Origin: Calditrichia bacterium | Lineage (GTDB): Bacteria; Calditrichota; Calditrichia; JAJRVZ01 | Assembly (NCBI GenBank): GCA_963765585.1 | Contig: CAVXXB010000006.1 | Coordinates: 68,007 to 132,006, forward strand | Reading direction: 5' to 3' | DNA: 64,000 nucleotides | In this document: in pieces, positions 20,401-62,806 of the stretch | How positions within the stretch are numbered: position 1 is the stretch's first letter | Layout of the letters: every line of letters begins with the position of its first letter | Translations under genes and position numbers: made by a program | Notes under the pieces: model-generated | The model's input: the letters and a program-made list of their open reading frames with translations, nothing else | Databases searched by the model: none | Told to the model about the DNA's origin: nothing

Positions 20401-20722
20401 AAAGATGAAACCACAGAGCACTCAGAGGAAAACTCTGAGAACTCTAAAAGAATATCCTTTAAGAGATATTACTGAGAAAATAATTTCATGTGCTATTAAA
20501 GTTCACTCATTACTTGGGCCAGGTCCATTAGAATATTCATATTGCCCAGGTTCTCTTACCTGATAGCAGAAAATCTAAAAATCGGATTATTGATCAATTT
20601 TAATGTTGACAAATTAAAAGAAGGAATAAGGAGAGTTATCTTATAAGAGATCACAGAGGGGAGATGATTAAAAATAGCATTAACACAAATAATATTAATT
20701 ATTTACTCAGTGTACTCTGTGG
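20401..20722. mobile_element. Decayed TIR-bounded cassette (~320 bp) carrying a frameshifted 3' fragment of a GxxExxY-family gene
   Basis: Left end CCACAGAGCACTCAGAGG. Right end, reverse-complemented, CCACAGAGTACACTGAG. The interior translates to …IISCAIKVHSLLGPG…LLINFNVDKLKEGIRRVIL, homologous to the intact GxxExxY gene at 30773. Confidence 0.55.
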
Positions 20723-20761
20723 TTATTTTTTACACTACCAATCATCAATAGAGGAGCAATT

Positions 20762-22024
20762 ATGAAGAATTTAATATTACTTCTGATTTTTTGTGTGCTT
20801 ATAGGCATATTACCTGTTCAGGCACAACTTACCGAACAGAATTATTATAACTACCTGCATGAATCTTATTCACGCCAGGATGACAATGTCTATGATTATC
20901 TGATCGAGGAATTCCAGATTTTTCTATTGACCTTTCCCGACTCGCCCAACTCAGATGAAGTTCTGTTTATGCTCGCCTCACTTTATGATGCCAGCAATGA
21001 TAATGAAGAGGCATTTTGTATCTTCATAAAGCTCAAATTTCTTTATCCGAATAGTACCCGCGTGAACGATGCCGTAACCGCAGTAAATGACATCGTTCAC
21101 AATAAAGCCGAAAGAACATTTGAGGATTATAAGACCAAAATTGATGAAAAAGTGACCAATACGCCCCAAAGTCCCGATAAGTTAACTGCACTTTATGAAT
21201 ATCTCAGGTTCTTATATGAACTGAATATTGATGATGTAAATCAGTTTCTGCGTACGGAAATCAAAAACTATCTTCATACCTATTCGGAGAACGCAAAAAA
21301 CAGTGATCAACTGTTTTTATGGATTGCTGATCTCTATGAAAAGGATTCCGATTGGGATGAAGCCATATATTCTTATACAAAGCTAAGCTATCTGTATCCA
21401 AACAGTCCTCTCATGCCGGATGTCATCTTTAAACGTTCCTATGTATTGTATAAGGAAAAACGAGCCTATCAGCAGGCCAGAGATTCATTTATTCGCGTGA
21501 TTACGGACTATCCCGAAAGCGAATCTGCCGCAGAAGCGCAATTTTATCTTGCAGAACTCTATCAGGAAGAACTTGAGAATCCCCAGGAGGCGATCACAAA
21601 CTATCAGGTACTCGTTGAAGCCTATCCCAAAAACTGGCATGCGGTTGAAGCATTGAAACGTGTCGCTGAAATATATTATAGCCAGGAGAAGTATCAGGAT
21701 GCAATAAATTCATATTATCAGATATATGAATTATATCCTGAAAATCCATATACTCCGGATGCATTAATTGAGATCAGTGATTTATATAAAGGCAAACTAA
21801 AAAACTTTGAAAAAACCATCGAAATACTAAAATTATTTGCCGCCCAGTATCCCGAACATGCAGACGCAGCGGAGAGGCTGTTTGAGGCAGGTGAAATTTA
21901 TGAAGACGATCTGGAGCGCAAACAGGCAGCAATTGATACCTACCATGAAGTTAAAAATAAATTTCCTACATCAAAATATGCCGAACGCGCCCAGGATCAC
22001 ATTGACGACATAAGCCAGGAATAG
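20762..22024 (+). CDS. Secreted tetratricopeptide-repeat protein
   Basis: Signal peptide MKNLILLLIFCVLIGILPVQAQ. Repeated ~34-aa TPR-like units rich in Y/A/L (…AEIYYSQEKYQDAI…). Confidence 0.55.
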   Translation: MKNLILLLIFCVLIGILPVQAQLTEQNYYNYLHESYSRQDDNVYDYLIEEFQIFLLTFPDSPNSDEVLFMLASLYDASNDNEEAFCIFIKLKFLYPNSTRVNDAVTAVNDIVHNKAERTFEDYKTKIDEKVTNTPQSPDKLTALYEYLRFLYELNIDDVNQFLRTEIKNYLHTYSENAKNSDQLFLWIADLYEKDSDWDEAIYSYTKLSYLYPNSPLMPDVIFKRSYVLYKEKRAYQQARDSFIRVITDYPESESAAEAQFYLAELYQEELENPQEAITNYQVLVEAYPKNWHAVEALKRVAEIYYSQEKYQDAINSYYQIYELYPENPYTPDALIEISDLYKGKLKNFEKTIEILKLFAAQYPEHADAAERLFEAGEIYEDDLERKQAAIDTYHEVKNKFPTSKYAERAQDHIDDISQE

Positions 22025-22207
22025 CGGGATTATAATATCCTCAGGGAGAGACGCATTGATATGCGTCTAAACTCTGATCATACCAAATACTTTAGAAATC
22101 GCAGCACAATTGTGTAAAAACAAGTATGAACCTGTATAATTAATATTACAATCAAATTGAAACATGTCACTCTTAAGAACATTGGTTAGCCTGCCGAACA
22201 TAAGCGT

Positions 22208-24515: not shown

Positions 24516-24589
24516 GCAATTTTCCTTTTTTGTAAAATATCGTCTTTTCTTGATCCGAGTCAAGGAAATAATTTTGAGTGTGTATTATC

Positions 24590-24845
24590 TTATACAAGAT
24601 ACAAGATACAAGATACAGGATTCTGGATGCGGGATACTCGGCACTGGGCACTCGCTCCTCGTTACTGGATGCTGGATGCTGGATGCTGGGTAAAAGATGC
24701 AAGATACAGGATATTTCACAAATGAAAGTGCATGTGAAAAAGCTAGCCCCGAAGGGGCTAAACAATTCTAGCCGTGAGCGTAGCCCACGGTGGATGATAC
24801 ATTTACAACCCATAACCCCGGAGGGGTTAAATTATTGTAGGAGAT
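24590..24845. repeat. Single copy of the ~256-bp structured repeat family (heptamer tract plus hairpins), immediately upstream of the 24850 gene
   Basis: Contains (caagata)n / ggatgct tracts, then AGCCCCGAAGGGGCTAAACAATTCTAGCCGTGAGCGTAGCCCACGGTGGATGATACAT…AACCCCGGAGGGGTTAAAT. Confidence 0.8.
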
Positions 24846-24849
24846 TATA

Positions 24850-27955: not shown

Positions 27956-28223
27956 CAAATTTAAAAGCGCTTTCTGCTTTCGGCTATCCGCAATCAGCGA
28001 CTTTTTGTTTATAAGTATTTATCGAAAAATCAGGGCGGAAAGCCGATAGCAGATGGCAGGAAAACAGGATACGGGATACAGGACACAAGAGGCTGGATGC
28101 TGGATAAGAATTTATGTGGTTTTCAATTCAACAATTTCCAACTATCCTGTTATCCTGTCTAAAAAAATATCTGCGCCAAACTATAATTCTCGAACCCAGA
28201 TGTTGCGGTAGCTGACCGGGTTA

Positions 28224-28984: not shown

Positions 28985-29075
28985 ACATATGTAATTAGGA
29001 ACTGGGAATTGGGAACTGGTGATTAATCATCTAATATCCAATTACCAATTCCGAATTCCTAATTTCTAATCTACC
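28985..29075. repeat. Imperfect inverted repeat of GGAACTGGGAATTGG-type oligo repeats around a central TGATTAATCA palindrome
   Basis: …aattaggaactgggaattgggaactggTGATTAATCAtctaatatccaattaccaattccgaattcctaat…. Confidence 0.6.
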
Positions 29076-30584
29076 AAATCTACCGTGAACCTTTTTTTTG
29101 AACCCAATACCGGCGCACTGCGGTCTGCAATCACATATTGATCCAGCACAATTTGCAGTTTTTTAACTACGTCCTGCCGCTCATTCCACAGATTATTTTC
29201 TTCATGTGGATCATTTGACAGATCGAATACCATTCCCGGTTTGTTTGTTATGATCACATCTTCATTGGTATATTTTTGATCCCCATATACAACTTTCCAA
29301 TTTTTATAACGCAGTGCTAATAATCCATCCTCAGCATGATGCACCGTTGCCTCGCGCAGTGGTGTTTCATATTCTTCGCCAAAAAATACTTTTGAGATAT
29401 CATAACTATCGCTGGCTTCAAAATAGGTCAGTTTTTGTCGGGTGATCGAGGCCAGGGTTGCCATAATATCCGTATGACAAATCACTTCATCCGATAATTG
29501 TCCCGGTTTAATACGATCCGGCCAGACAGCAATAAACGGAACCCGATGCCCTCCTTCATACATTTGTCCTTTATGACCATGATAGGTAGAAGATACTGAT
29601 GCCGCATGAACGTGCGATTCATCCTTAGCCGCGCCATTATCACTGGTAATAATGATCAAAGTGTTATCAAAAATGTCTCTCTCTTTAAGGACCGTTACCA
29701 ATTCACCTATCATCCAGTCAAAAAGCCAGATGAGATCGCCATGCGGTCCCCGCTTGCTCTTATTTTTTGCTAATTCTGGTATATGATATGGTGCTCGTGG
29801 TGCATATGGTGTGAAATAAAGAAAAAATGGTTTTTCCGGATTTTTCTCGCGGTGAAAATTGATAAATTCACACGCTTCCCGTGTAAATTTTATGTCCACT
29901 TCTTGTTCGACCCATTCCGGTGAGACCCATGAAGTTTCGGCCCGAACATCTTCATAGGCATGTTTTGACAATGCTTCCGGCAGATTATAGATATGTTTAT
30001 CCGCAACAAAGAAAAATGGTGCATCGGAAAGACTCGCACCAGAAGTATAAAAGGCATGATCAAATCCAAATTCATTCACGCCATAGGTAACCGGCATGGA
30101 GATATTTAATGAATCTTGTCTGGCACCTTTGAGGCTCCAGCCCACACCCAGATTCCATTTACCAGCGAGGTAAGTTATATAACCATGCTCGGCGCATCAT
30201 CATGGGTAAATTTGTAAGAAACGGATCGATCAATGGACGGCCATATCCCTCGTGGCTCGATTTGAGCATGTCCAGACGATAGCCATAACGTCCGGTAATC
30301 AGGGCATAACGGGATGGCAGATCAAATGATGATGACGCATGGGCATCTGTGAATCTTAGACCTGATTCCGCCAGATTATCAATATTTGGTGTGTGAATTC
30401 CGGCATTGGGGTTGTAACAGGAAATATCATCATAGCCAAGATCATCCGCTACAATGAGAATAACATTGGGATCTTTATATTTTTGTTGAGAAGTGGAACA
30501 ACTTGACAAGATTAATGAGAAAATAATGAGGGCTAAATAAAATAATGTCCTAATAGCCTGATGATCTGAGTATTTGGTTTTCAT
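29066..30584 (-). CDS. Sulfatase-family (alkaline-phosphatase superfamily) protein, frameshifted near 30150..30200. The formylglycine-precursor Cys/Ser is replaced by Asp (DLPSR).
   Basis: N-terminal ORF: signal/lipoprotein sequence, ADDLGYDD, then …ASSSFDLPSRYALITGRYGYR, which aligns to the canonical …CSPSRAALLTGRY. The C-terminal ORF is upstream-open as GKWNLGVGWSLKG…, typical of sulfatases. Confidence 0.65.
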
Positions 30585-30671
30585 TTTTGTGCGATTTCGA
30601 AATATGGACTACTCAATAATACGAATTGTAAAACAAAATTAAAAGTAGAAGTTATGGTAGGATTCCATTAA

Positions 30672-31206
30672 CCGCAGTGGACGCAAAGGAAATGAAAATT
30701 CGCAAAGAAATTGGTATGATATTTGTAATATAATTATTCAACAGGTTAGAAAAAAATGGAACTAATTTTATTATGAAAAAGATACTAAATCTTAGTGAGA
30801 ATCAGATATCACATTTAGTCATAAACAAGGCATTAAAAGTTCACAGAACTTTAGGTCCGGGACTATTGGAATCTGCATATTCTAAATGCCTTACCATCGA
30901 ACTTAATAAAGAAAATTTAATCATAGAAAGGGAAAAATATATTTCATTAGAATATGAAGGAATACCTGTAGACAAAGCTTATAAAGTTGATCTAATGATA
31001 AATAATAAAGTTATAATTGAAATTAAAGCTGTCACCTCACTCACAAATGTGCATTTATCTCAAATTTTAACATACCTTAGATTAACTAATTGTAAATTAG
31101 GATTACTCATAAATTTTAATGTCAATTTATTAAAAAATGGTATTCGCAGAGTCGTCAATAATTTATAACTTTGCGTACCTTGCCCATCGTAGCGATCTTT
31201 GCGGTT
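30672..31206. mobile_element. TIR-bounded cassette (~535 bp) carrying an intact GxxExxY-family gene. TTAA on the left flank, TTCTTA on the right.
   Basis: Left end TTAA|CCGCAGTGGACGCAAAGG. Right end …CTTTGCG…GATCTTTGCGG|TTcTTA. Inserted immediately after the GH127 stop codon. Confidence 0.5.
30773..31168 (+). CDS. GxxExxY-family protein (predicted PD-(D/E)XK nuclease fold)
   Basis: 131 aa. GLLESAYSKCL matches the GxxExxY signature. The core …KVDLMINNKVIIEIK… resembles the D..E.K motif. Confidence 0.7.
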   Translation: MKKILNLSENQISHLVINKALKVHRTLGPGLLESAYSKCLTIELNKENLIIEREKYISLEYEGIPVDKAYKVDLMINNKVIIEIKAVTSLTNVHLSQILTYLRLTNCKLGLLINFNVNLLKNGIRRVVNNL

Positions 31207-31207
31207 C

Positions 31208-33651
31208 TTATTCTACCATCCATTCATATACACCGAGAATTTGCTCATTTTTGGCGGTGGCCTCCAGGCGGATGGCATTGGTGCGGACGGTTTCGAACTC
31301 AACCAGGTTAAATTCCCCTGGTCTGGTGCCATACTCCTGCTCGGTAAAGACCCGAACCCATTTATCATTTGATTTATAAACCACTTTCCAGGAATCGGGT
31401 ATTTGGCATTTCTGATCCGAGACCCAGGAGACTGCAACCGCTGACAGCTCTTCCCGGTTTGGAAAATTGTATTCAACCCAGTAAATGCCAGATGTATCCG
31501 CAGACCAGGTAAAATAATCAGGTTTTACATTATTTGGCTTGGATAGTGATAACTGATCATTCAAAGCATTGGGATTTTCTCCTGCAGAGTATTTTATCAT
31601 CGCATTCATTGAAATTGGTGGAGAATTAACAGGCTCTGCAGCCGATGCCTCATCGGCCAGCCAGACACTCATGGCACCCTTACCCCTGTGTGCCCAGGCA
31701 TAATACGGGACCAATTTTATTTCCTGAACCGATTCAATTAAGTTCTGATTATCCGGATCATAATCCAGGGCTTTGACCTGACCCGAGATCATCTGAATTC
31801 CGTTTAGCAGCTCGGGATGAAATTCAGAATGAAAGCTGGTCGTATCATTTAAAACCAGATTCGTTATCTTTCCCTGATTATTATCAACTGACTCGGCACA
31901 AAAAACAATCGGACCTCTTTGCAGTGCTATTTTATTGATATTTGTTTCCACTTCTTCATTGGTTACAATTTTTCTCACCGGCATTGGTAATTTCAGATTA
32001 ATGATATCATCCTTTTTCCATTTTCTCCGGAACGCTGCGTATCCATTAACCAAGGTATAGTCTACATTTTCCCCATTAATCGTGATTAAAATTCTGCGTG
32101 ACTCTTTTTTTAAGTATTTATACAGATCTCCGGGAACCGGTTCGTTTTGCGCCCATCCTGGTATGCGAATATTTAATGTGAAAAAACAGGGCGTATCGGG
32201 ATTCAGGGAAATATTGATATCTCCTTCCCATGGATATTTGGTTTTTTGCGATATGCCAATTCTGGTGTTATCTACAATCAGTTCTGCGTCATTGTCTACA
32301 AATAAATTAATATAAGCCGCCGCCGGTGCAGTAGCATATATATAACCCGGCAATGAAGCCATGAATCGCGTAATATTCCCAGGGCAACAGGCACAGCGAA
32401 ACCAAGAACTTCTCTGGTCATGTCCTTTGGATTGCAGCACATTTGGATAAAAAAATTGTGTGCCGTCAAGTGAAATTCCGGATAATAATGCATTATACAT
32501 GGTTCGTTCCATCACATCAATATATTTTGCATCACCATTTAGCTGAAACATGCGATGATTCCAGAATACATTGGCCACCGAAGCACAGGTCTCATCATAT
32601 GCACTGAGATTTGGCAGATCGTACTCCGGACCAAATGCTCTCACCATAAGCTTACCGAACCGAGACCGCCGGTGATATGCATTTTTTTATCGACCACGTT
32701 TTCCCAGAGCAGATCAAGTGGACTTTGATAAGTATCATCGGATGTGAGAATAGTAATATCCGCCATGGCCGAATACATGTAAGCGGCACGCACCGCATGG
32801 CCTACGGCTTCAGTCTGTTCACTCACCGGTTTATGATCCTGCCAGTATGATCCATTTTGCCACATATCCATACTGGAAGGATCATATTTTTTATGCCCTC
32901 TCTGCTTTAGAAAAAAATCGGCCAGATCCAGATACATAGATTCACCAGTTACCTTGTATAGTTTGACCAGGCCCAATTCTATTTCCTGGTGTCCGGGAGG
33001 CTCCTCTATCTTTCCCGGTCCAAATTCATTTACAATCAGATCAGCATTCTTTATGGCAACGTCCAGTAACTTTCGCTTACCGGTGGCCTGAAAATATGCG
33101 ACCGCCGCTTCATAAAGATGCCCGGCACAGTATAGTTCGTGTCCCGAACTGACATCCGACCATCTTTCTGCTGTACCGGACCAGCTACTCGGTGGTTTGT
33201 TGGGATCTATGGTACGCCAGGTCATAAGATATCCATCATCTTCCTGAGCCGCAGCAATAATATCAATCAGGCTGTCCACATAGGATTCCAGTACCGGGTC
33301 AGGATAAGTTTGAAAAGAATACGCGGTACCCTCAATAATTTTATAGACATCACTGTCATTGAAAGGATAAACACCCTGATATTCACCTGTTTTTAAACCT
33401 GCTGCAATTTCAAAGTTTTGTATGCGGCCGGTATTTTCACACATCTTAAATGAATGCGGAATGGTTACCTGCTGGTTTGTTTTGATGCGTGGACCCCAGA
33501 AATTGTCGGTGATTTTTACTTTGGTAAATGAGACCGGGGTAATCCTCTGTTCTGTGTTGTTAAGGGAACAGGAGGCAAATATTACCAGTAGTAGCAAAAT
33601 GTAATAGGGATGATTCATTTTTTTATCCTGGATTTGTTTGTTAGGGTTCAT
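31208..33651 (-). CDS. Glycoside hydrolase family 127 (DUF1680, beta-L-arabinofuranosidase-like), frameshifted near 32640..32670
   Basis: N-terminal ORF: signal peptide plus the DUF1680 N-domain, ending …HITGGLGS. C-terminal ORF: …FGPEYDLPN…CCPGN… The frames differ by one nucleotide in ggtaagcttatgg. Confidence 0.7.
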
Positions 33652-33661
33652 ATTGCTTTAA

Positions 33662-35011
33662 CCGCAAAGATCACCAAGAGGATGCCAAGAACGCAAAGAA
33701 ATTATCATTTAACTCTTTTTAGGTGTTATAATAATTATGCAATTTGTCACCCTGAATTTATTTCAGGGTCTTTTAAGTTCAATTCAGAAATAATTTCTTT
33801 ATATATTAATTCTAAAGAAGTGATCTCTTTAATATTATATAAATCGAATTTATCTTTGCGGTATCTTGACAGTTCAAATAAGAGCAGTTGAAAATGTCTT
33901 ATAGTTGGATGATACTTTTGAAGGGCATAATCAACTATATAGTTTACTAGATGACTTTTTTAAACATCATAAAGATGAAACTTTGTTTTCAGAAGTAGAA
34001 AGTAAAGGAGGGTTAGAAAATAACTGGCTGGATATGTTTAAAAGTTTATATGATATAATGAATATAAAATAAAGAAGGATAAAAAAAGTAGGGAAAAAGG
34101 AGTTGCACAGGGCTTCATTAAAGTGTAACAGTGATGATGAAATAAGTGAGAAATAAATAGAAGAATACATAATTAATTAAAAGAGAAGGTGGATAAAAAA
34201 GTGATGATATATATACATATTTAAGGAAACAATGGAATATGATAGAGATATATAAAAAGAAAAAGATACAACTGCTCAATAAATTAAGTATCATTTAGTA
34301 TACTTAGATGAAGTTATTGGTTAAATACTGCAAAAATGGTGTGAGAAAATGGCTTTTACTTTTGTTAAGTAAATACTCATCAGCATCAAAACTAATAAGG
34401 ACAAAAGAAAGAACTCTGGATAAAATAACAAATATATATTATAAAAGAGCTCAGGAGATAGTCACAGATGACAGAGAACACATTGGTGCGGATGATGATG
34501 AGGCAATCAGTTTTATCATATGGTACACAGTAGAACAGATTTTGCAACTCAAGGGCAAGATCGAAACGCATAAACAGTTTATGATTAAACGTTGTGTCCT
34601 ACCGGAAGTAGATTTATTGCAATCTTTTACCGGAATCGGGATCTATTCTGTGATTGGTCTTGTGCTGAATGTCGTATCAGTTGACCGGTTCCCATCGGCA
34701 AAACATCTGGCATCTTATTTTGGCGTTCACCCTGTTTATAAGACCAGCGGCGATGGATCCGGCACATTTCGCATGAGTAAGAAGGGTCGCTCTGCTCCCA
34801 GAACAATCCTTTATATGGTTGCACGAACGAGCATCGCCCATAATCCACTGATAAAAGAAGTGTATGCAAAGACGAGAAGGAGACACAAAGGACGCCGAGA
34901 AATTAGTACTGTAAAGACCCTGATATAAATTCATGGGTGACCTTTATGGTATCGTTCAGGAAATATGATTCATAGACTAATAAATTGATTTTATCTCTGT
35001 GTACTCTGTGG
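33662..35011. mobile_element. TTAA-flanked TIR element (~1.35 kb) with an AT-rich, decayed interior and a 5'-truncated IS110-family transposase gene
   Basis: Left TTAA|CCGCAAAGATCACCAAGAGG. Right CTCTGTGTACTCTGTGG|TTAA. The interior is far more AT-rich than the flanks. Confidence 0.5.
34308..34928 (+). pseudogene. IS110-family transposase, C-terminal (Transposase_20) portion only. The N-terminal DEDD catalytic domain is missing.
   Basis: LLQSFTGIGIYSVIGLVLNVVSVDRFPSAKHLASYFGVHPVYKTSGDGSG…RMSKKGRSAPRTILYMVARTSIAHNP matches the conserved IS110/IS116/IS902 C-terminal domain. No DEDD domain upstream. Confidence 0.6.
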
Positions 35012-35019
35012 TTAAATTA

Positions 35020-36780: not shown

Positions 36781-36954
36781 ATTTTGTCATCCCGAACTTG
36801 TTTCGGGATCTATTGGGAATTACAAATGTGAAGATAATGGAAAAAAGGAAAAGAGGCAAAGGGGGAAAAAGGAATAAGGAAAAAGGATCAAGGTGCAAGG
36901 AAGGCAACACGGGCTTCAAGGCGCCAGGCTCAGGAACAGGAATCAGGTTTTCGG

Positions 36955-37135
36955 GTAGTAGTCATCCTGGGTGCTGTTTCTTGAATCGTGTCCCATGTCA
37001 TTCCGCAGGAATCTTCCCGACGTGTGGGCATGTATTTAACCCCTTCGGGGTTAGGGGGTGTGGATGTATCTTCCACCGTGGGCTACGCCCACGGCTAGAA
37101 TTGTTTAGCCCCTACGGGGCTCTTTATTAACGGTA
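36955..37135. repeat. Single inverted-orientation copy of the hairpin block of the ~256-bp structured repeat
   Basis: …GTCATTCCGCAGGAATCTTCCCG…TTTAACCCCTTCGGGGTTAGG…CCACCGTGGGCTACGCCCACGGCTAGAATTGTTTAGCCCCTACGGGGCTCTTT, the reverse complement of the unit seen at 4640..4760. Confidence 0.8.
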
Positions 37136-37557: not shown

Positions 37558-37597
37558 AATTTATCTCCATTTTCAGATTAAACGAATTGAATATTAA

Positions 37598-37783
37598 CCA
37601 CAGAGGCCACAGAGATAGAAGACAGGTTTTATAGAATCAGGAATTTGTAATTAGTAATTTGTTAATGGTCTCTGGTTACAGGTCATCTATATTTTTAATA
37701 CTTATGTGAAGTTGTCAATTTAAAATTGAAAATTCATAATTTATAATTTATAATTGCATTTTTATGCTCTGTGGTCTCTGTGG
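37598..37783. mobile_element. Empty MITE (~186 bp) of the same TIR family, flanked by TTAA on both sides
   Basis: TTAA|CCACAGAGGCCACAGAGATAG … GCTCTGTGGTCTCTGTGG|TTAA. 18-bp near-perfect TIRs. No ORF inside. Confidence 0.65.
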
Positions 37784-37823
37784 TTAAATTTTAATATCTC
37801 CTAATGCAATTTTATACATAACT

Positions 37824-41543: not shown

Positions 41544-42036
41544 TGGATATCTCCAATTTTTATAATGATTTTTATTTGATTGAAAGAATAAGTCCCTCAG
41601 CACCTGAGTCCCTGAGTCCCTGGGAGTAGAAGTGAAAAAGAGACAGAGCGACAAAGATACAAAGTCAATAATTGATTAAATTAAAAAATCCCGAAAGGAT
41701 TCAACAATTACAGGTTACGGAAGTTTATTTCCATGTTCAATAAAAATATTTAGAAAATTTATTTTTTAGATTTGAAGTAGTTTGATTTGCATGAAGTCCC
41801 TGAGTTCCTAAGTCCCTAAGCATAGATTTTAGTACCAAGTTTTAAGAATATTATTTCAATAGAAAGATACTCATTATAGATTAAAGGAGTCTCTTTTTAG
41901 TAGCATTTCGCTGCAGATCATTTTTATGCTCAGGGACTCAGGGACTCAGGCGCTGAGGGACTATTCTATTTAAAATAAGGGTTCCACTTGCAATAATTAT
42001 CCCAAATTCTGATATTATCCAAAACCCGGAAATACT

Positions 42037-42738: not shown

Positions 42739-43192
42739 GCAGGCAAAAGGCAAAAGGAATAAAAGGTAAAAGAAAAAATATTTCATACAGTCATCCCGTC
42801 CCGGAACGAGATCCTATGGATAGGGATCATGTTCCGTTTGTCACACCGAGATCCACTGAGAATACACAGAGTTCCACAGAATATATTAATTGAATATGCA
42901 ATACAACCTTACCTTTGGGATTGATAGGTAAATACAAATTCTTATAGAATCAGAACTCAGGGACTTAGGGACTAAGGTGCTCAGGGACTTTTTTTTATTA
43001 CACAAAGAACCCGAAGAATCCACGAAGTTCACGAAGAATAAATATTGAATTTATTTTAATTTTATTAGTTTGGCATATTGATTTATGAGTTTAGATATTT
43101 TAAATTTAAGATTCTCTGACTGAGCAATCAGTCATTTTTAATATAAAGACGTTTCTGATTTTGGAATTTGGATTTTAGATTTTGGATTACAT

Positions 43193-43264
43193 TCCGGCGT
43201 AGTCAGCTGGTAGAGCGGGTGACTGTTAATCATTAGGTCGTAGGTTCGAGTCCTACCGCCGGAG
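43193..43264 (+). tRNA. tRNA-Asn (anticodon GTT)
   Basis: Acceptor stem TCCGGCG/CGCCGGA. Anticodon loop CTGTTAA. T-arm GTAGG-TTCGAGT-CCTAC. Discriminator G. CCA not encoded. Confidence 0.8.
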
Positions 43265-43346
43265 CCTGACCCCACACATTTTTGTGCTGGGGTTTTTTAT
43301 TTTTACGAAGCAAATTCTAAGCACTAATATCTAAATCTTAAACAAT
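43262..43346. repeat. 85-bp direct repeat, copy A. Starts at the last nucleotides of tRNA-Asn and covers its terminator plus ~45 bp downstream.
   Basis: Matches 52378..52462 with 5 mismatches. Confidence 0.85.
43270..43299 (+). terminator. Rho-independent terminator after tRNA-Asn
   Basis: CCCCACACATTTTTGTGCTGGGG followed by TTTTTT. Confidence 0.5.
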
Positions 43347-43504: not shown

Positions 43505-43640
43505 TGCTGTTTTTATGTATCTTACTTCAGCAATATCATCTTCTTGACTTCCCTATACTCCCCCGCCACCAACTGGTAGTAGTAGATTCCACTCGCCAGA
43601 TTCTTTCCGTCAAATTTGCTGTAACATTTATGTAATGTTA
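43505..43640 (-). pseudogene. Orphan 3' tail (~45 codons) of a T9SS-CTD gene, with its terminator at 43474..43497 and no upstream body
   Basis: Minus-strand translation …KFDGKNLASGIYYYQLVAGEYREVKKMILLK*, followed by the GGCTCTGCAATGCAGGGCC hairpin plus a T-run. This matches the 3' ends of the genes at 53300 and 55118. Confidence 0.5.
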
Positions 43641-45842: not shown

Positions 45843-47592
45843 CCCTGTAACGTTGTCCTGAGCCTGTCGAAGGATCACCCGCCACCAACTGGTAGTAGTA
45901 GATTCCACTTGCCAGATTTTTTCCATCAAATGTGATAGGTATGATTTCCTTGATTCAGTTTTTTGATACAAGAGTCGTCACTTCTTTTCCAAGAATGTTA
46001 TAGACTTTCAGTTCAACATATTCAGATTTGGGTAAAGTAAATTCGATTGTAGTTAATGGGTTGAAAGGGTTGGGAAAATTTTGATGTAGATAATTTTCTG
46101 CAGGCAAAATAATTTTATCATTTTTGTTTTTATCAATTGCAGTAACATAGTGATAAATACTATCCGGATTTCCGCCATATGCCCCCATGTCATTTCTCGC
46201 AGAATCCATTGCCGGCCATACTGCCATACCTCCTGATTCGATGTCATTGTATATGCTACTGTCATACCCGGCATCAATACATGGAGATTCAGCAGACAAA
46301 TAAAAGTTTTCTGAACCGGTGAATAAAGGATCTTCGAAGTAAAGATTGTCTACTGAATCATGGTATGAACTATAGGCAAAAAATGAAGTGAGTATCGGCA
46401 ATAAAATTGTTATACAACTCAATACCATTATACGCGGTCCTGGCGTTAAATAAGACTTCAAACCTGAAATCACATGAAGCTGGAATTGAAATTTTTCAAA
46501 GATATTATTTACAAAAAACGGAATCGATTGAAATATGATGAATATACCGAAACACCATTATTGTCAACAATGGTGTTATTGCATATAAAAGGCCTCGGAC
46601 TTATATCAGCATTCGGATATTTATGGCGAAATAAGTTCCATATTGAGATAGCCGAGCCATGTTTCGGTGAATTATTGTTATAAATCAGATTATTGTAAAT
46701 ACTTGGATTCGTATTGTAATCACGAACATTTGACTGTTGCCAATACGTAATGATAGATTCCAGCCCCAAAGGTGTTGAAACAATGTAGTTCATTATTTCG
46801 GAATGGTATTGCCACAGATAATAACTTCACCACTGAAAGGAAGATTTAAGTTGACAGGCTATTCCCCCACCCCAGGCTTTCCATGTTTTTGAAATGTATA
46901 CATGATTATTCTCAACAATATTATTCTTCACAATAATAACGACCACCTATCGCACTGTAATATTATAAATATCAATTCCACCTCCACCTAGTTTTCAGTA
47001 CCCTTATGATATTGTTTTATAATATAGTTTACGAATAATTACTTACCGATTTGCCCTGCCGGGATAGCCCAGGCACGAATACCGGCTCCTCGGTAGCATA
47101 AAGATCGGACTGAATTGTATTATCTCTTATAATATTATTTCGAATATTTGCACCGGAAGAATTAACAAAAATTCCTCCGCCCTGGCGCATCACTCCTGGT
47201 CCAAAGTCAGGATCAACATAAGTGCTTCTCGTGCCGGAACCTCCAGTAATAGTAAAGCCATATAGCACAGAAGTAGTATCTTCTCCATTATCATAAAGAA
47301 TACTACTGAACCACTATCGGGATGACTGGGTTGGCTGCCATCAATAATTGTCCGTGAAATATGACTGGTATCTTCATCAAGTCATAAAATGACTGGCGAC
47401 TATGATCGCTTTTCCCCGGAAATTAATATTTTCATAATATGTACCTTCCGCCACCAACACTGTATCTCCTTGATTGGCGATATCGATTGCTCCCTGAATA
47501 GATGAGGTATCAACCGGAACATTGATAGTGGACCCAGATGATTGACAGCATAAAAAGATTGAAACGACAATAAAGATGGTAAAAATTTTCAT
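45843..47592 (-). pseudogene. Degraded right-handed beta-helix (pectate-lyase-like) protein gene with T9SS CTD, broken into at least 4 ORF fragments by frameshifts and stops
   Basis: Signal peptide MKIFTIFIVVSIFLCC at 47592. Beta-helix repeats (NIIRDNTI…, IVENNHV…, NNTIVDNNG…). CTD FPNPFNPLTTIEFTLPKSEYVELKVYNILG… in ORF 45955..46473. The CTD tail …FDGKNLASGIYYYQLVAG continues out of frame to ~45843. Confidence 0.6.
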
Positions 47593-52140: not shown

Positions 52141-52377
52141 AATTCACCCCAACTCCCGCATAACAATCGTAACCCAGGCGCGGGAGACGCCCAACTTTCT
52201 TGCTAATGCTGCTCTGCTTCCGATTTTCGGGTTGTTAACCATTTTTTGGTATTTTAAGGCAAGTTCATACCGGGAAATACGTTTCTTCAATTTTTTGGTG
52301 TTAATCTTTTGTTGGCGTTGGCCAAGTCGCAGTGGGAATTCTGTAGTAAAAAAGTTCGAGTTTAGGACGGATGAGGG

Positions 52378-52462
52378 GAGCCTGACCCCACACATTTTTG
52401 TGCTGTGGTTTTTTATTTCTACGAAGCAAATTTTGAGCACTAATATCTAAATCCTAAACAAT
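52378..52462. repeat. 85-bp direct repeat, copy B, matching the tRNA-Asn 3' end / terminator copy at 43262..43346
   Basis: GAGCCTGACCCCACACATTTTTGTGCTGtGGTTTTTTATTTcTACGAAGCAAATTtTgAGCACTAATATCTAAATCcTAAACAAT. Only ~6 nt of the tRNA itself are shared. Confidence 0.85.
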
Positions 52463-53299: not shown

Positions 53300-54730
53300 C
53301 TATCGCATCAGGATCATTTTTTTTGTCTGATGAAATTTCCCGGCTGCAATCGTGTAGAAATAAACTCCGCTGGCCAGATTTGAGGCATCAACGGTTAAAA
53401 AATGCGTACCAGCCGTTTTATGGCCCGCAAATACCGAACCCACAACCTGTCCGGTTAAGTTGTGCAGCGTGATTTCTACAAATTCATTTGCGGGCAGCGT
53501 AAATGATATGGTGGTGCTCGGATTAAAAGGGTTTGGATAGTTTTGCGATAAATGATATCCAAGCGGAGTTTTTATTAAACTCTCATCCGTTGCATCAATT
53601 GCTGCAAGTTCGCTTTCAATAATATTTAAAAAGTAAATGTCACCAGCACTGCCGTATGATTGGGTTGATCCTATAATCGTATAACTGCCCTCTCCACTGC
53701 AAATCACCTGGTTCGCCCAGTCATTCCCTTCACCGCCATAGGCCTTAGTCCATACTGTATCGAGATTTGCATCGAGTTTTAGCACATATATATCACCTAA
53801 GCCGGCTCCAATCGAAGTGGTAGATCCACAGACTATATAACCGCTATCCGGAGTTTGGGCAATAGAATACCCATATTCATCTTGGGCAAAACCGTAAGTT
53901 CTGGTGGATAATGTATCACCGTCCGATGTTATCTCCGCCAGGTACACATCGTACCCGCCGGCGCCCGACGACTTTGTTGTACCAAGAACGAGAAATCCAC
54001 CATCAGAAGTATTGCATATATCGTAACCAAAATCAACATCGTTTCCGCCGAGCGTACAGGTCCATAACGTATCACCGTTGGATGAATCCAATTTCGCGAT
54101 ATACATTTTGTTCGGACTGCCAACGGCGCCGGTCATCAGGTAATGTTTATCCGCTGTCTCAATAATTTTGTATCCAATAACCGGACCATATGTCCGTGAC
54201 CATTTTTCCACTCCTTTGGCATCGGTTTTCACCGCCCAAAGATCACTATAATTATATTGACCGGTAAACACAAATCCGGAATCGCAAGCCTGGACAACTG
54301 AGTAAGAGCCGTCTTTTCTCGAACTGCCAAAGTTCTTCTGCCAGATTAAATTCCCCAGGTTATCGACTTTTATAAGACAGACATCGCCGGAATTTGCACT
54401 GCCGCTGCTGAATGTTCTGCCACAAATAAGATAATTGCTGTCCAGGGTAGCGATGACTTCCATCCCGTTATCCCATGATACACCACCATAAGTTCTGGTC
54501 CAAATGGTATCTCCTTCTGCATTTGTTCGGATTAAATAGATATCATTATAATATGATTCCTGGTAAATACCGGTAATTAAAAATCCGCCATCATCCAATT
54601 GTACCGCACCGTAACCAATGTCATTGTAATCTCCGCCATACCATCTTTCTGAAACAATGGTTTGTGAAAAAAGATTCATGAAAAGAGCAAAAAAGACAAT
54701 CACAAAAAGCAGATTAAATCGTTTCAACAT
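53300..54730 (-). CDS. Secreted beta-propeller repeat (SBBP-like) protein with T9SS C-terminal sorting domain
   Basis: Signal peptide. About eight ~45-aa repeats (…GGxxxDxGxxxxxTxDGG(F/Y)(L/I)(I/V)xG…). CTD LSQNYPNPFNPSTTISFTLP…GVYFYTIAAG…KKMILMR. Confidence 0.65.
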   Translation of the reverse strand: MLKRFNLLFVIVFFALFMNLFSQTIVSERWYGGDYNDIGYGAVQLDDGGFLITGIYQESYYNDIYLIRTNAEGDTIWTRTYGGVSWDNGMEVIATLDSNYLICGRTFSSGSANSGDVCLIKVDNLGNLIWQKNFGSSRKDGSYSVVQACDSGFVFTGQYNYSDLWAVKTDAKGVEKWSRTYGPVIGYKIIETADKHYLMTGAVGSPNKMYIAKLDSSNGDTLWTCTLGGNDVDFGYDICNTSDGGFLVLGTTKSSGAGGYDVYLAEITSDGDTLSTRTYGFAQDEYGYSIAQTPDSGYIVCGSTTSIGAGLGDIYVLKLDANLDTVWTKAYGGEGNDWANQVICSGEGSYTIIGSTQSYGSAGDIYFLNIIESELAAIDATDESLIKTPLGYHLSQNYPNPFNPSTTISFTLPANEFVEITLHNLTGQVVGSVFAGHKTAGTHFLTVDASNLASGVYFYTIAAGKFHQTKKMILMR

Positions 54731-55117: not shown

Positions 55118-56387
55118 CTATAAATCACCCGCCACCAACTGATAGTAATAAACACCACTCGCCAGATTATTGCCGTCAAACCGATACTGATGCACACCTG
55201 CCTTTAGCCATTGGCCTATTAGCCTTTTAACCTTCTGGCCTGCAACATTATAAATTGTTAACGTAACAAATTCGGATTTCGGAATTCGGAATTCTATATT
55301 CGTAATTGGATTAAAAGGATTGGGATAATTTTGTAATAGTACAAATCTTTCCGGCATTCCAGAATGAAATACTTCATCAATATCAGTAAAAATTGGATTT
55401 TTTTCATCGTGCTTAGTCCAGGTAAAACCATCCGGTGATGTGGCATAGCCAATTTGACATTCAGTTCTCCAGGGATTTTCATTTATCCTACTGGTATCAC
55501 TGCCACTGTACCACATGCGGTATGTGGTTGTAACGGTATCCAGCAGAACGGAACAAAATCCAGTCCAGGTATCATCCCAACTTCCAGCAGACCCCTTTTT
55601 TAACACAGGATTCCCTGCATGTTTAGTCCAACTTACACCATCTTCGGAAGTGGCATATCCAATTTGCCCGTCAGAATGTTCACCGCCCGAATACCACATA
55701 TGAAAAGTTTTACCATCAAAGATCACATTTGGTGCTTCAACTCTGGGATAATCCCAATTTCCTGAGATTCCGGTCTTCAGAACCGGATTTTTTGCATTTT
55801 TTGTCCAGGTAACACCATCTGGTGATGTGGCATGACCGATGCGAACATAATTTCCATCGGCACCAGCATACCACATATGATAGATACTATCAACCAATAT
55901 AATACAATGACTGTCAACAAATACATCATCCCAACTCCCATTCGGTCCAGGACTCAGGACCGGATTATTCACCGAATCTTTTGACCAGATAAGACCATCC
56001 GGAGAAGTGGCATGATGGATATGTATCGGTCCGGGAAGGAGAGGATCATCTGATGAAGTGTACCACATTCGGAATAGCGAACCATCATGAATAACGTTCG
56101 GCTCATACACAGTCGCCTCATTCCATCCGCCAAATGGCTCATGAACCAGCACCGGATTTCCAATATGCATAGCCCAGTCAATCCCATCGCTTGACGATGC
56201 AAAACCGATACCACCTACTGGAGCCGGTGATTTCCCGGCATACCACATATAGTAGGTATTGTCAACTATAAGCACGGAAGGCATGCCGGCAACTTTATAA
56301 TCCCATGCATTCTGTGCCAATCGAGCTGGTGAGGATTGATGCTAAGAACAACATCATTATACTTAAATTTGTAAAAACTGACCTCAT
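55118..56387 (-). CDS. Secreted tandem-repeat beta-propeller protein (GH43/GH130-like blades) with T9SS CTD. The signal peptide is out of frame, with a frameshift near 56320..56345.
   Basis: Seven ~55-aa repeats with a W(T/S)K…NPVL…G.WD…V..P.V…MWY pattern. CTD LLQNYPNPFNPITNIEFRIP…GVYYYQLVAGDL. The track ORF starts at TTG 56320. A signal peptide MRSVFTNLSIMMLFLASILTSSIG is encoded at 56342..56387 in the -1 frame. Confidence 0.6.
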
Positions 56388-58283: not shown

Positions 58284-58290
58284 GGGGGAG

Positions 58291-60531: not shown

Positions 60532-60727
60532 TTCTGATCTCTATTAATGTTCAAGCAGGGTTAGAAGTCAAGATTCTAAACAAGATAACCCTTTATAAGC
60601 AGCATTTCCAGAAAAAACTTTACCATTTCCATAAGAAGGATATTACATCTCAAGCAGACAATACATCCACCGTACTATTTACTGCGGATCGGCTACCGAT
60701 TGACTATAGGATTTGAATTCCTGTTGA

Positions 60728-61756
60728 TTAAAATCCTATTCCCTTGGCCTCCAGACGAATTCGCAGCAGGTACATGTCGGCGGTGATGTACAATGTTGAG
60801 CCATCATCGCCAAAAGTGCAGTTGGACGTTGCCTGGGTCGTCTCCAGGGTACCAAGGTGCGTGCCGTTTGGCGCAATTATCAAAACACCACCCGGACCAG
60901 TCGCATACATATTGCCTTTCTGGTCAACGGTCATCCCGTCACCCCATGATTCAAAAAAGACACGGCCGTTTGCCAAATTTCCATTCTCCAGCACATCATA
61001 GGCCATGATGACCGCCTGATTCCTGTCCGAATTGGCCACATACAGCGTTTTCTCATCAGGTGAAAAGGCAATGCCGTTGGGTCGCGATAATTCAGCGGTA
61101 AGCAGCGTAACCGATCCATCTGTGGAAAGACGATACACACCCTGAAAATCCAGTTCTTTATCGGGATCTTCCATACCTTTTTCCAAACCATAGGGCGGAT
61201 CGGTGAAGTAGATATCCCCGTTACTTTTCATGGCCAGATCATTCGGCGAATTAAACCGTTTTCCTTCGAACTTATCAGCAAGGGTTTTAAAGTGTGCCTC
61301 AGGGGCATCCCAGGGAGCCTCCAGTTGGGCAATGCGACGATCTCCGTGCTGAGCCAGGATTAGTTGCCCTTTGCCGTTGACAACCAGACCATTTGAGCCG
61401 CCTTCACCTTCTCTCGGAGTTGAGCCTGTATATCCCGATGGTTTTAGCCAGACTGAGGCTTTCTCTCCTTTTTTCCAGCAATAAATGGCATTTCTGGGAA
61501 TATCCGAATAAAGTACAGATTGAAGGGCAGGAACCCACACGGGACCTTCTGTCCATTCATGACCCTCCGCGAGTATCTCAAGTACCGCATCCGGCGCCAC
61601 CAGTTCATCGATGCCCGGATCGAGCTGTTTAATGCTCCCGATGGTCTTAATCTCATTTAGACCGATTTCTTCAACTTGTGAGTCCCGGTTCGTACAGGAT
61701 GAAATACACACAATTAAAAGTACTACTGATAGATATCTGACTATTTTCATCATCAA
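60728..61756 (-). CDS. SMP-30/gluconolactonase/LRE-family six-bladed beta-propeller lipoprotein
   Basis: Lipoprotein-type signal (LIVCISSC). Motifs TEGPVW, NGLVV, NDLAMK and NGIAFSPD are typical of gluconolactonase-like propellers. Confidence 0.65.
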   Translation of the reverse strand: MMMKIVRYLSVVLLIVCISSCTNRDSQVEEIGLNEIKTIGSIKQLDPGIDELVAPDAVLEILAEGHEWTEGPVWVPALQSVLYSDIPRNAIYCWKKGEKASVWLKPSGYTGSTPREGEGGSNGLVVNGKGQLILAQHGDRRIAQLEAPWDAPEAHFKTLADKFEGKRFNSPNDLAMKSNGDIYFTDPPYGLEKGMEDPDKELDFQGVYRLSTDGSVTLLTAELSRPNGIAFSPDEKTLYVANSDRNQAVIMAYDVLENGNLANGRVFFESWGDGMTVDQKGNMYATGPGGVLIIAPNGTHLGTLETTQATSNCTFGDDGSTLYITADMYLLRIRLEAKGIGF

Positions 61757-61987
61757 AGATCTCCTTTTCTCATTTTATCTAATTCAAATTCTTCCATAAA
61801 ATTTCACGACCCAAATATGCGGCATTCACAATGAATAAGCCAAAATGTTGATCACCATTTACAATATCACTTGCCTGATTAATTTACAAAATTTACCACC
61901 AAGACTCTAAGACACGAAGAAAAAAGGACGATAAGAATTATACTAAATAAATTGTATTGCCCTGACCATGTGTTTACATGTTTTTAA

Positions 61988-62806
61988 CCGCAAAGTTCGC
62001 AGAGGAGACGCTAAGTACGCAAATCAAATAATTATATCCTATAATCCTGTCCCAAAGGGATCCCGTTGGGATTATCCCGTCTAAAAAACACATTTAGTAA
62101 GCAGGAGAGACTTACGTTATCGCATCACTCCCAGAGAAGAATCTCCTGCTCTCCCCGGGGAGAAATTTTGTACACACCCTGCGACTCCCTCTCAAACCAG
62201 CCGTATACGTTTCTGTAAAGGATCGCCCGGGCATCAGGTTCGCTGAGATTTTTGGCTATATGAGAGGCCTTTGTCGGCCCGTTCTCCTGCAGGAACCGGC
62301 CAATTGACAGGGCTCTCTGCCGGTAGGCTGTCATAATGCCTTTTCTCATGTTCGATCCTCCCGGATTCGGGTCGCCTACCCGCCGGACGAACTCACCGAG
62401 CAAACGCTCCCGGCGCGGCTTTGATTTCCGGGGACGATACTCACCGGGATCGAGAAGTACTTCCACACTGCCCGTTACAAGTCTGGGATCTACAACCACC
62501 AGCCCCAGGCCAAGCATTCTGAGCAGTTTGATGATCTGCTTCCGTCGTCTTTTTAGAGCACCACATTGTCTGGGAACGCCAATATACACCTTCGAAGTGA
62601 GATTAAGTCTGTCTACGGCTTGCAGGATGACTTCAAGATTGAGAGAGAGTTTGAGTTCAACAACAACCGGATCTTCCTTACCGCGTATGGCGACAATATC
62701 ACAGTTGTGAATCTCGCCCTTTACTTCATAATTTTGAGATTCCAGGAATTGTTTTATGGGTAGATAGAGATCCGCTTCTCTCATTTATTCTTTCGGCACC
62801 TCACGG
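61988..62806. mobile_element. TTAA-flanked TIR cassette (~820 bp) carrying a GC-rich PD-(D/E)XK-fold gene
   Basis: Left TTAA|CCGCAAAGTTCGCAGAGG. Right CCTCACGG|TTAA, whose reverse complement is CCGTGAGG. The cargo ORF is ~53% GC in a ~40% GC background. Confidence 0.55.
62125..62784 (-). CDS. Hypothetical protein with an N-terminal PD-(D/E)XK-like motif and a basic C-terminal region
   Basis: …NCDIVAIRGKEDPVVVELKLSLN… fits the D-(x)n-E-x-K pattern. 219 aa. Anomalously high GC. Lies inside the TIR cassette. Confidence 0.4.
   Translation of the reverse strand: MREADLYLPIKQFLESQNYEVKGEIHNCDIVAIRGKEDPVVVELKLSLNLEVILQAVDRLNLTSKVYIGVPRQCGALKRRRKQIIKLLRMLGLGLVVVDPRLVTGSVEVLLDPGEYRPRKSKPRRERLLGEFVRRVGDPNPGGSNMRKGIMTAYRQRALSIGRFLQENGPTKASHIAKNLSEPDARAILYRNVYGWFERESQGVYKISPRGEQEILLWE

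Follow-up and report, generated by a model that had tools for sequence, protein, structure and literature searches.

What are the five small elements with related inverted ends that lie between the genes of a Calditrichia bacterium, and how did they come to occupy these positions? The question is raised by a stretch of 64,000 nucleotides, here called the window (contig CAVXXB010000006.1 of assembly GCA_963765585.1, positions 68,007 to 132,006), in which a preliminary description had recognized five loci, numbered E1 to E5 in the present work, that carry a gene or gene remnant for a GxxExxY nuclease, other cargo, or nothing. They had been tentatively taken for a family of mobile cassettes with piggyBac-like duplications of TTAA. 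Our analysis suggests that the elements are closer in character to 23S rRNA intervening sequences (IVS) than to a transposon that targets TTAA and that the five loci probably belong to a class of palindromic elements that is found between genes in several phyla. In the reading that we favor, to which we give about an even chance, they are selfish, IVS-like hairpin cassettes in the spacers of protein-coding genes, whose open reading frame (ORF) decays while hairpins are left at gene 3' ends.

The first step is to establish that the ends are real. AACCRCRRWG occurs nine times in the window, with 1.5 occurrences expected and none of 100 shuffles reaching nine, and every match is an element end in the correct inverted orientation; TTAACCRCR occurs seven times against 1.8 expected. 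With these AACC(A/G)C... ends so far above chance, and on reading the loci themselves, all five elements were confirmed. Their terminal inverted repeats are also genuine, but what had been missed is that they are tandem heptamer tracts of one flavor among many. Each arm is a short array of two to four units of the heptamer C-R-C-R-R-A-G, spaced 2 to 5 nt apart to give a 9- to 10-nt period and capped by TT(A/C)A(C), which is TTAAC in the window. The array of E4, for instance, contains CCACAGAGG-CCACAGAGA and that of E5 CGCAAAG/CGCAGAG/CGCTAAG/CGCAAAT, and CRCNRAR heptamer doublets number 12 in the window as opposed to 1.4 in shuffles.

The complete arrangement is seen in E2 (30668-31206, plus strand), an intact cassette that begins with TTAACCGCAGTG... 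and ends with ...CTTTGCGGTTc, with no TTAA at the right. Its 5' arm (30668-30712, TTAACCGCAGTGGACGCAAAGG...CGCAAAG) and 3' arm (31169-31206, CTTTGCG...CTTTGCGGTT, 1 nt from the stop codon of a GH127 gene) enclose a gene at 30773-31168 (plus strand) that matches PF13366, PDDEXK_3, with an E value of 1e-40 over profile positions 2-117 of 117. Profile, motif, and D...ExK residues all place this ORF in the GxxExxY family (PF13366 / TIGR04256), and the predicted minimum free energy fold of the element is closed by 18 long-range pairs. E1 (20409-20724, plus strand) is a decaying cassette of the same kind, with AACCACAGAG at each end and without TTAA; its arms (20409-20431 and 20702-20724, AACCACAGAG...) form a 23-nt inverted pair that is 83% complementary. 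The decayed GxxExxY fragment noted there earlier resolves by tblastn into two fragments with the middle deleted, at 20462-20542 and 20551-20640 (E = 5e-7 and 1e-3), which correspond to residues ~10-36 and ~99-128, differ in frame as a result of a frameshift, and have lost ~65 central codons between them. E4 (37594-37787) is a 194-bp ORF-less hairpin with arms TTAACCACAGAGGCCACAGAG and CTCTGTGGTCTCTGTGGTTAA, which are 21 nt long and 95% complementary, with TTAA on either side; the palindrome reaches 37586-37795, and a search inside the element found no GxxExxY remnant.

The remaining two elements enclose other sequences. E5 (61984-62810, minus strand) starts at its left end with TTAACCGCAAAG... 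(TTAACCGCAAAGTTCGCAGAGG...) and ends with ...CACGGTTAA. A DUF2161 gene (62125-62784, minus strand; Pfam E = 4e-35) is bounded on the left by an arm of four CGCAAAG-type units (61984-62025) and on the right by a divergent arm (62786-62810, reverse complement AACCGTGAGGTGCCGAAAG); its ATG, on the sense strand, comes directly after the 5' arm. DUF2161 homologs are ordinary conserved genes in Rhizobiales and Azospirillum, with a best identity of 53%, and E5 gives the impression of a gene that was acquired by horizontal transfer and is framed by arms of this kind. Both the E2 ORF and the DUF2161 ORF look foreign, because their GC contents are 26.5% and 51%, respectively, compared with 40.7% for the window. 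E3 (33658-35015) is composite, with TTAACCGCAAAG... at the left and ...CTCTGTGGTTAA at the right, and its two ends differ in heptamer flavor: the outer arm at 33658-33701 is of the CGCAAAG type and the one at 34989-35015, proximal to a GGT gene, of the CACAGAG type. Its interior comprises an inner inverted repeat (33750-33778 with 34908-34936), a weak partner arm (33847-33862), a degenerate purine tract (34868-34899), AT-rich filler, and a C-terminal IS110 remnant (34308-34928, plus strand) in which Pfam recognizes only the Transposase_20 C-terminal domain. The cargo assignments of the preliminary description, GxxExxY/PDDEXK_3, DUF2161, and 5'-truncated IS110, were all correct by Pfam, which reports solely these three inside the elements and no DDE transposase; nor was a trans-acting DDE transposase seen among the scanned ORFs of the window. 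Pairwise comparison of the window elements revealed no interior similarity. Duplex energies of the arms range from -19 to -31 kcal/mol for E1, E2, E3, and E5 and reach -45 kcal/mol for E4, and the E5 stem is stronger on the sense strand (-31 kcal/mol) than on the other (-19).

Are the TTAA flanks a signature of piggyBac-type transposition, as had been proposed? TTAA is itself palindromic, and from the window alone a direct repeat of it is indistinguishable from an inverted one. Cassette ends in Bacteroides, Sphingomonas, and an IMG/VR contig read TTCA...TGAA, which is an inverted and not a direct repeat. Among 33 clean hairpins, TTAA stands on both sides in 5, the 3-nt flanks are inverted complements in 9 and direct repeats in none, and direct matches of 3 to 5 nt are likewise absent from all 33. 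Given these homologous ends and flank counts, TTAA is not a target duplication; the tetranucleotide belongs to the inverted repeat and forms the outermost part of the palindrome, and the proposal fails. Indeed, the E4 palindrome extends 8 nt beyond TTAA, the terminal TAA/TGA of the element also provides the preceding gene with its stop codon at two loci (L088 and L207), and of 134 family ends among the matches listed from a metagenome sample, 43 (32%) have TT before AACC. The likeness to piggyBac-type, TTAA-targeting DDE transposons is thus confined to TTAA next to CC-starting ends in the window, whereas the elements have no DDE transposase, no direct duplication, and no identical copies. A palindromic TTAA beside an inverted repeat should not, as a general caution, be read as a target duplication.

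The same arms surround GxxExxY genes elsewhere. An unbiased tblastn search of PLSDB with the E2 protein led to eight genomes of cultured bacteria, and CRCRRAG arms are present in four of the four closer homologs (44-50% identity to the E2 protein). The gene stands between ade and manC in Bernardetia (arms ...AACACAGAG...CCACAGAG and CTCTGTG...CTCTGTGTT), between radA and FAD in Bacteroides finegoldii (arms TTCACCACAGAGGACGCAGAGGACACGGAGG and CTCTGTGACCTCTGTGTCCTCTGTGGTGAA), between fabD and fabG in Sphingomonas (arms TTCACGCGAAGGCGCGAGGACGCGAAG-ATG and CTTCGCGTGAA), and, in Gemmatirosa, with AACCGCAGAGGACGCAGAGG... hairpins on both sides. Further armed copies occur in Flavobacterium psychrophilum between batA and batB, in metagenomes between DeoC and Aldedh and at loci L088 and L194, at a locus whose protein is 71% identical to that of E2 (L237), and at the single GxxExxY locus recovered in a scan of viral contigs (the IMG/VR contig). 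Altogether, GxxExxY genes are armed on both sides at no fewer than 10 independent loci, and the architecture spans at least four phyla, its carriers including Bacteroidota, Gemmatimonadota, and Alphaproteobacteria. In its complete form, the module encloses a gene of ~125-131 codons that begins within the 5' arm or immediately downstream of it. The nuclease looks intact, with residues G30, E33, Y36, D73, E83, and K85 (E2 ORF numbering) invariant among 20 homologs and a predicted fold consisting of an alpha/beta nuclease core, Cas4/RecB-like; a sequence search of solved structures with the GxxExxY protein gave no match. Four more distant homologs (32-38% identity) have no CRCRRAG arms, and the arm module therefore appears to belong to a subfamily of PF13366 and not to the whole family. 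Flanking these distant genes are a 12-bp inverted repeat in Treponema, direct repeats in Fusobacteria and Prevotella, and nothing in Persicobacter; the direct repeats are 22 nt long on the Fusobacteria ZRK30 plasmid (L211, AGATTTAATCCGTGTACCTAT) and longer in Prevotella nigrescens (L212).

Two further observations concern armed loci outside the window. In F. psychrophilum (L217-L226, locus positions ~2885-3013), the GxxExxY stop codon is followed by an A-run of strain-variable length (A7-A9) and then by a second purine-type arm able to pair with the same 3' arm. Since the upstream and second arms share this one 3' arm, a gene-enclosing and a local stem would be mutually exclusive, and these alternatives may constitute a switch or the relic of a nested hairpin. 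At L227-L231, ~2.1 kb downstream of the GxxExxY gene, two aldehyde dehydrogenase genes flank an ORF of 161 aa that matches Y1_Tnp (IS200/RAYT-like) faintly and might conceivably encode an enzyme acting in trans.

Comparison with related genomes shows the insertion-like behavior of the cassettes. Between fabD and fabG, S. paeninsulae has an empty spacer of 32 nt, and between radA and FAD, Parabacteroides has one of 13 nt; in the carriers, both spacers are almost wholly filled by the cassette. The comparison of filled and empty sites that had been recommended thus yields empty spacers in related genera, which are too diverged to define exact junctions, and the filling of such spacers helps to explain, as was anticipated, why GxxExxY genes are scattered. 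For the window itself, four relatives were reached through the GGT gene (L205, L206, L207, and L208, at 81, 80, 77, and 73% protein identity, respectively), while a search of genome contigs with the GGT protein produced only relatives at ≤69% identity, without synteny. E4 separates a CO-DH flavoprotein gene from a conserved ORF of 67 codons. The syntenic spacer of L205 lacks E4 and measures 15 nt, compared to 266 nt for that of the window, but since its flanks cannot be aligned, it does not qualify as a clean empty site.

Residence can be followed at the 3' end of GGT, where an element begins 0 to 5 nt after the stop codon in five of five genomes, the window (TAACCACAGAGTACACAGAG) and the four relatives. 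It reads TAACCGCAAAGTGCGCAAAG in L205 and TGAACCGCAGAGTGCGC... in L207, is a complete 228-bp ORF-less hairpin in L206 (1857-2084, TTAACCGCTAAG...CATTGCGGTTTAA), and survives as a degenerate AACC...GGTT remnant in L208. Because orthologous elements stand at the same site in all four relatives, E3 is best read as a resident GGT-side hairpin that was later expanded by IS110 insertion and AT-rich filler; the truncation of its IS110 had been described rightly, but E3 would not be a cargo cassette. Signs of recent transposition are lacking in the sequences compared, as interiors are unrelated and each identical GxxExxY protein keeps to one context, never two, among 24 F. psychrophilum and 23 metagenome contigs. 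What remains of the proposed mobile family is, accordingly, a set of recurrent cassettes bounded by inverted repeats and tied to GxxExxY, without evidence of current movement. In the same way, E4 has the short length, noncoding interior, and inverted-repeat ends of a miniature inverted-repeat transposable element (MITE), as it was first called, but neither a target-site duplication nor copies with a homologous interior.

Gene-bearing cassettes are only a small part of what these arms build. Scanning metagenomes with AACCACAGAGNNCACAGAG, which represents one flavor of arm, identified at least 120 contigs from soils, sediments, and waters, and the figures given here for them hold among the matches listed. 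GC content extends from 33 to 71%, and the taxonomic spread of the arms seems to be very wide. AACCACAGAGNNCACAGAG nearly always runs on into a third CACAGAG unit, an inverted partner lies within 5 kb for 76 of 140 motif instances, and most arm pairs are ORF-less hairpins of 60 to 200 bp; a GxxExxY ORF is present at just two of 120 loci, L088 and L194. Across loci, the hairpin loops are all different and have no common interior, and the ORFs beside solo hairpins include no recurrent small cargo. At one locus (L003), the heptamer region forms one long repeat-derived ORF. Rfam, with gathering and E-value thresholds, offered no family for the elements and only nonspecific microRNA-like hairpin matches. 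Long pairs of arms of the same flavor were considered as possible cassettes and rejected, as the genes that they enclose are housekeeping genes (lutBC, radA, and thrC) and such pairs are most likely two separate hairpins.

Placement and predicted folding bear on what the elements do. The genes next to solo hairpins converge in 17 cases, run in tandem in 15, and diverge in 2 (chi-square P = 0.001, with crude ORF calls), and the hairpins are often found within a few nucleotides of a stop codon; the distance to the stop codon is 1 nt for E2, 5 nt for E3, and 36 nt for E4. GxxExxY ORFs are co-oriented with their neighbors at 9 of 12 loci (P ~ 0.07). Every one of 13 predicted sense-strand folds is closed by 10 to 38 pairs between the first and last 45 nt, and in several of them the ATG is in or next to the closing stem. 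Among the matches listed, family ends have an A-rich tract on the 5' side and, by symmetry, a T-rich tract on the 3' side, the latter starting ~5 nt beyond the stem, and a terminator consensus scan does not call these elements.

Which known system do these features recall? The 23S rRNA IVS of Coxiella burnetii has a 28-bp terminal stem and two to three tandem heptamers (GACAGAT) before a small decaying ORF; the number of heptamers varies among strains, RNase III cuts in the stem, and older proposals held that IVS are remnants of mobile elements or mobile elements themselves (PMC4990558). With the IVS of C. burnetii and Leptospira (PMC4990558), the present elements share a length of a few hundred nucleotides, an inverted-repeat stem of more than 20 bp around a small and often decaying ORF, two to four tandem heptamers just before the ATG, an unexplained origin, and a long-suspected mobility. 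They differ in lying in the spacers of protein genes and not in helix 25 or 45 of 23S rRNA, in encoding a PF13366 nuclease instead of the four-helix-bundle S23p (PF05635), and in having the heptamer CRCRRAG instead of GACAGAT; RNase III processing would here be modeled from predicted stems.

On these grounds, we propose that the cassettes are hitchhikers that enter the short spacers of neighboring genes and mostly point in the same direction as these. Once transcribed, their arms would anneal to form a long stem around the ORF, hiding its ribosome-binding site and restraining expression of the nuclease. The stem would also be an RNase III-type substrate, so that the host transcript is presumably cut at a defined place and not disrupted. 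After decay of the ORF, the stem could persist for a long time as a hairpin at gene 3' ends. E2, E1, and E4 would then represent successive stages of a putative decay series; E4 and the GGT-side element E3 would be ORF-less hairpins, the latter subsequently disrupted by IS110, and E5 would have arms of this type around a DUF2161 gene of foreign origin.

A number of observations weigh against this proposal. Orientation is one, as E2, L088, and L237 are directed against their neighbors and a promoter-like 5' region is conserved between E2 and L237, from which it follows that cotranscription with the host is not universal. In 32 hairpins, G·U mismatches are unbiased between strands (37 versus 40), a result that is negative or underpowered, transversions dominate the arm mismatches (91), and a test for overdispersion gives P = 0.18. 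An RNA-level function of the stems is inferred from their sequence. Arm complementarity is weak past the terminal 10 to 12 nt in E1, E2, E3, and E5. The heptamer sequence itself, and not mere complementarity, is conserved across phyla, which fits sequence-specific protein recognition better than a role of structure only. The ORF family is also not that of the IVS four-helix-bundle protein, and Rfam finds no rRNA gene in the window. Lastly, many other heptamer flavors in the same genome build hairpins without any nuclease, so a host process that generates heptamer hairpins independently of the cassette may exist.

The cross-phylum conservation of the heptamers is better explained by the main rival, in which the elements are DNA transposons or homing-type elements, the GxxExxY nuclease is the mobility enzyme that recognizes CRCRRAG, and E4-like hairpins are MITE-like derivatives mobilized in trans. 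In different phyla and at GC contents from 33 to 71%, the heptamer sequence accompanies the nuclease gene, as coevolving binding sites would, and inverted multiple subterminal repeats are a typical transposase-binding architecture. Ac/Ds, CACTA elements, and Tn7 are familiar examples of it. The intact catalytic residues and predicted Cas4/RecB-like fold, the presence or absence of cassettes at conserved gene junctions, and the great excess of ORF-less over ORF-bearing copies among the matches listed, as with MITEs, point the same way, as does a PDDEXK_3 phylogeny with multiple transfers between divisions (PMC3424549). Yet direct flank matches are absent from all 33 hairpins, leaving no target-site duplication, no two copies have a common interior, and an identical protein is confined to a single context in the 24 F. 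psychrophilum and 23 metagenome contigs. The protein is, moreover, a bare nuclease core of ~130 aa without an additional DNA-binding or strand-transfer domain, the GGT 3'-end element in five diverged genomes speaks for long residence instead of turnover, and E5 and the long same-flavor arm pairs enclose genes that do not encode nucleases. We therefore treat nuclease-driven mobility as a tentative alternative, possible and short of probable. A more far-reaching synthesis, which strikes us as rather unlikely, would make GxxExxY proteins the mobility or homing enzymes of CRCRRAG-armed palindromic cassettes and join these with the four-helix-bundle 23S IVS in one previously unrecognized selfish class, which invades transcribed spacers and rRNA, is neutralized by stem formation and RNase III cleavage, and leaves ORF-less hairpins to be exapted as 3'-end structures.

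A second rival reverses the order of events. Here, the hairpins are functional 3'-end or regulatory structures of the host, such as terminators, mRNA stabilizers, or protein-binding tracts, that were later colonized by small selfish genes and insertion sequences. IS110 family elements prefer palindromic repeats as insertion sites. The IS110 remnant in E3 fits that preference, and a host function would suit the enrichment of solo hairpins between convergent genes and their near absence between divergent ones, the starts a few nucleotides past stop codons, the A-rich 5' and, by symmetry, T-rich 3' flanks, the retention of an element at the orthologous GGT 3' end, and the many cargo-free heptamer hairpins and single tracts of this genome, in line with the unexplained intergenic heptamers of Beggiatoaceae, Cyanobacteria, and Bacteroidetes (PMC4679880). 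For intrinsic bidirectional terminators, the placement at gene 3' ends would fit and the flanks are A-/T-rich, but the T-rich tract is offset ~5 nt from the stem, the terminator scan is silent, and terminators do not keep one primary sequence across phyla. Relatives are free of hairpins at the fabD-fabG, radA-FAD, and CO-DH/small-ORF junctions, which argues that the structure arrives together with the cassette, and the arming of GxxExxY genes on both sides at 10 or more independent loci is similarly hard to reconcile with later colonization. A host origin of the hairpins thus seems quite unlikely. Chance similarity of low-complexity intergenic sequence among the five ends, for which the abundance of simple repeats in the region and the short arm pairing in E1, E2, E3, and E5 might speak, is refuted by motif counts far outside the shuffles, by matches that all fall at element ends in the correct inverted orientation, and by the same ends around homologous genes in unrelated genomes.

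Several other repeat classes invite comparison with the proposed IVS-like cassettes. MITEs and palindromic repeats, such as repetitive extragenic palindromic (REP) sequences, REPIN, Correia, and ERIC elements, are likewise short, intergenic, bounded by inverted repeats, enriched at gene 3' ends, and without a transposase, and their empty copies are far more common than gene-carrying ones. The present elements, in contrast, have no target-site duplication and no common interior, their arms are heptamer arrays with copy-specific spacers, and the same arms occur across phyla instead of in one species, with no partner transposase or RAYT identified. With respect to REP/REPIN-RAYT systems in particular, the arms are shared across phyla and not species specific, and no Y1 transposase was found among the scanned ORFs of the window, although a faint Y1_Tnp match is situated 1.7 kb from the cassette of one relative. 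An integron attC cassette was considered and rejected, because arms flank the ORF on both sides and the elements are single and dispersed among housekeeping genes with no integrase nearby.

Cyanobacterial STRR (short tandemly repeated repetitive sequences) are intergenic tandem heptamer repeats. TAACTGA repeats of this type are found between genes in Beggiatoaceae, Cyanobacteria, and Bacteroidetes, and their horizontal spread has been suspected (PMC4679880). The present tracts resemble both kinds in having two to six tandem units near start or stop codons and a patchy distribution across phyla. However, TAACTGA-type heptamers form direct arrays that are almost never inverted (one inverted set is known, in BOGUAY) and enclose no gene (PMC4679880), while the tracts described here are inverted pairs that form hairpins, and one flavor of them is tied to GxxExxY. 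Heptamer-bearing rRNA IVS and unexplained intergenic tandem heptamers are already known (PMC4990558, PMC4679880); a nonexhaustive literature search returned no description of CRCRRAG-bounded GxxExxY cassettes or of cross-phylum ORF-less hairpins.

PDDEXK_3/GxxExxY proteins are very abundant, with thousands of homologs at E ≤ 1e-10 in one search, and form a common small family without an assigned function. A defined, armed module provides this family with a candidate binding or cleavage site and with cultured carriers. It also links the origin and mobility of ORF-bearing rRNA IVS with the unexplained intergenic heptamers of Cyanobacteria, Bacteroidetes, and others. For annotation, it accounts for many spurious small ORFs and fragmented spacers in metagenome-assembled genomes of the FCB group and of soils.

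The window contains additional heptamer-like repeats. It is rich in tracts of period 7, 8, or 9, several of which form strong hairpins from unrelated units. Hairpins of the 8-mer AGTCCCTG occupy 41591-42990, where arms at 41591-41635 and 41918-41962 are 97% matched over 32 nt (-84 kcal/mol), and a second arm pair of this flavor, at 41794-41831 and 42945-42990, spans a Vut_1 transporter gene (42037-42738). ORF-less hairpins with GATTAGA/GATGAGA and GGGAACT/GGGAATT heptamer arms lie at 7070-7182 and at 28993-29064, respectively, the latter directly 3' of a gene at 29066-30145 (minus strand), and a hairpin with GGATACA units lies at 12233-12364. Other heptamer flavors likewise arm hairpins in Verrucomicrobiota, Nitrospiraceae, and Hydrogenedentota, as seen at background loci taken without selection. 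A perfect 26-nt inverted repeat, TTGCCCCAGGATTAATCCTGGGGTAA (18306-18331 and 18463-18488, 131 nt apart), each arm of which is itself a hairpin, is situated in the divergent intergenic region upstream of an NFACT gene and adjoins CGCAGAG and ATTAGAG tracts (18225-18279). Between the 67-codon ORF and GGT, the motif TTCCCCCTnAAAnAAAGGGGGCnAGGGGGTTGTG (~36880-36915, minus strand) is kept in L205 (335-375), while the heptamer tracts around it are entirely different in sequence between the window and L205; with the core conserved and its surroundings unlike, the tracts evidently turn over while the core stays.

A composite repeat of ~256 bp is found in 4203-5620, where it is repeated 4.7 times in tandem (4386-5594), with further copies at 11770-12201 (within 11616-12370), at 24745-24837 (within 24571-24840), and upstream of the GGT gene (~36990-37120). 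In each unit, CAGGATN/GATGCTG and CTCGGNA heptamer tracts precede a set of three short hairpins rich in GC, AGCCCCGAAGGGGCT, GCCGTGGGCGTAGCCCACGGT, and AACCCCGAAGGGGTT. The composite repeat has no Rfam match and may represent either a structured RNA or a further kind of repeat. Long CAGGATG/ACAGGAT runs at 4220-4276, 5028-5103, 5286-5362, 24592-24713, and 28064-28106 are tandem and not in hairpin loops; we take them to resemble the CAGGAUG CsrA/RsmA-binding repeats of CsrB-type sponge RNAs.

Two genes beside E2 and E3 appear broken. The GH127 gene is split into 32641-33651, which covers catalytic-domain profile positions 1-271, and 31208-32647, which covers the remainder, and a sulfatase gene (29066-30584) is apparently split as well, its part at 30159-30584 matching nothing beyond profile position 90; the breaks reflect frameshifts, pseudogenes, or errors of assembly. 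Elsewhere, a tRNA-Asn(GTT) gene lies at 43193-43266, and an 86-nt stretch comprising its last 6 nt and its terminator (43261-43346) recurs with 94% identity 9.1 kb downstream (52377-52462). These 86-nt repeats have the appearance of attL/attR borders formed when an island inserted at tRNA-Asn, and the interval between them holds genes for proteins with type IX secretion system (T9SS) tails. Judging by its T9SS sorting domains, the organism is probably a member of the FCB group. A 60-nt segment repeated at 43559-43618, 45875-45934, 53337-53396, and 55125-55184, at the 3' ends of minus-strand genes, encodes the T9SS C-terminal sorting domain (Por_Secre_tail).

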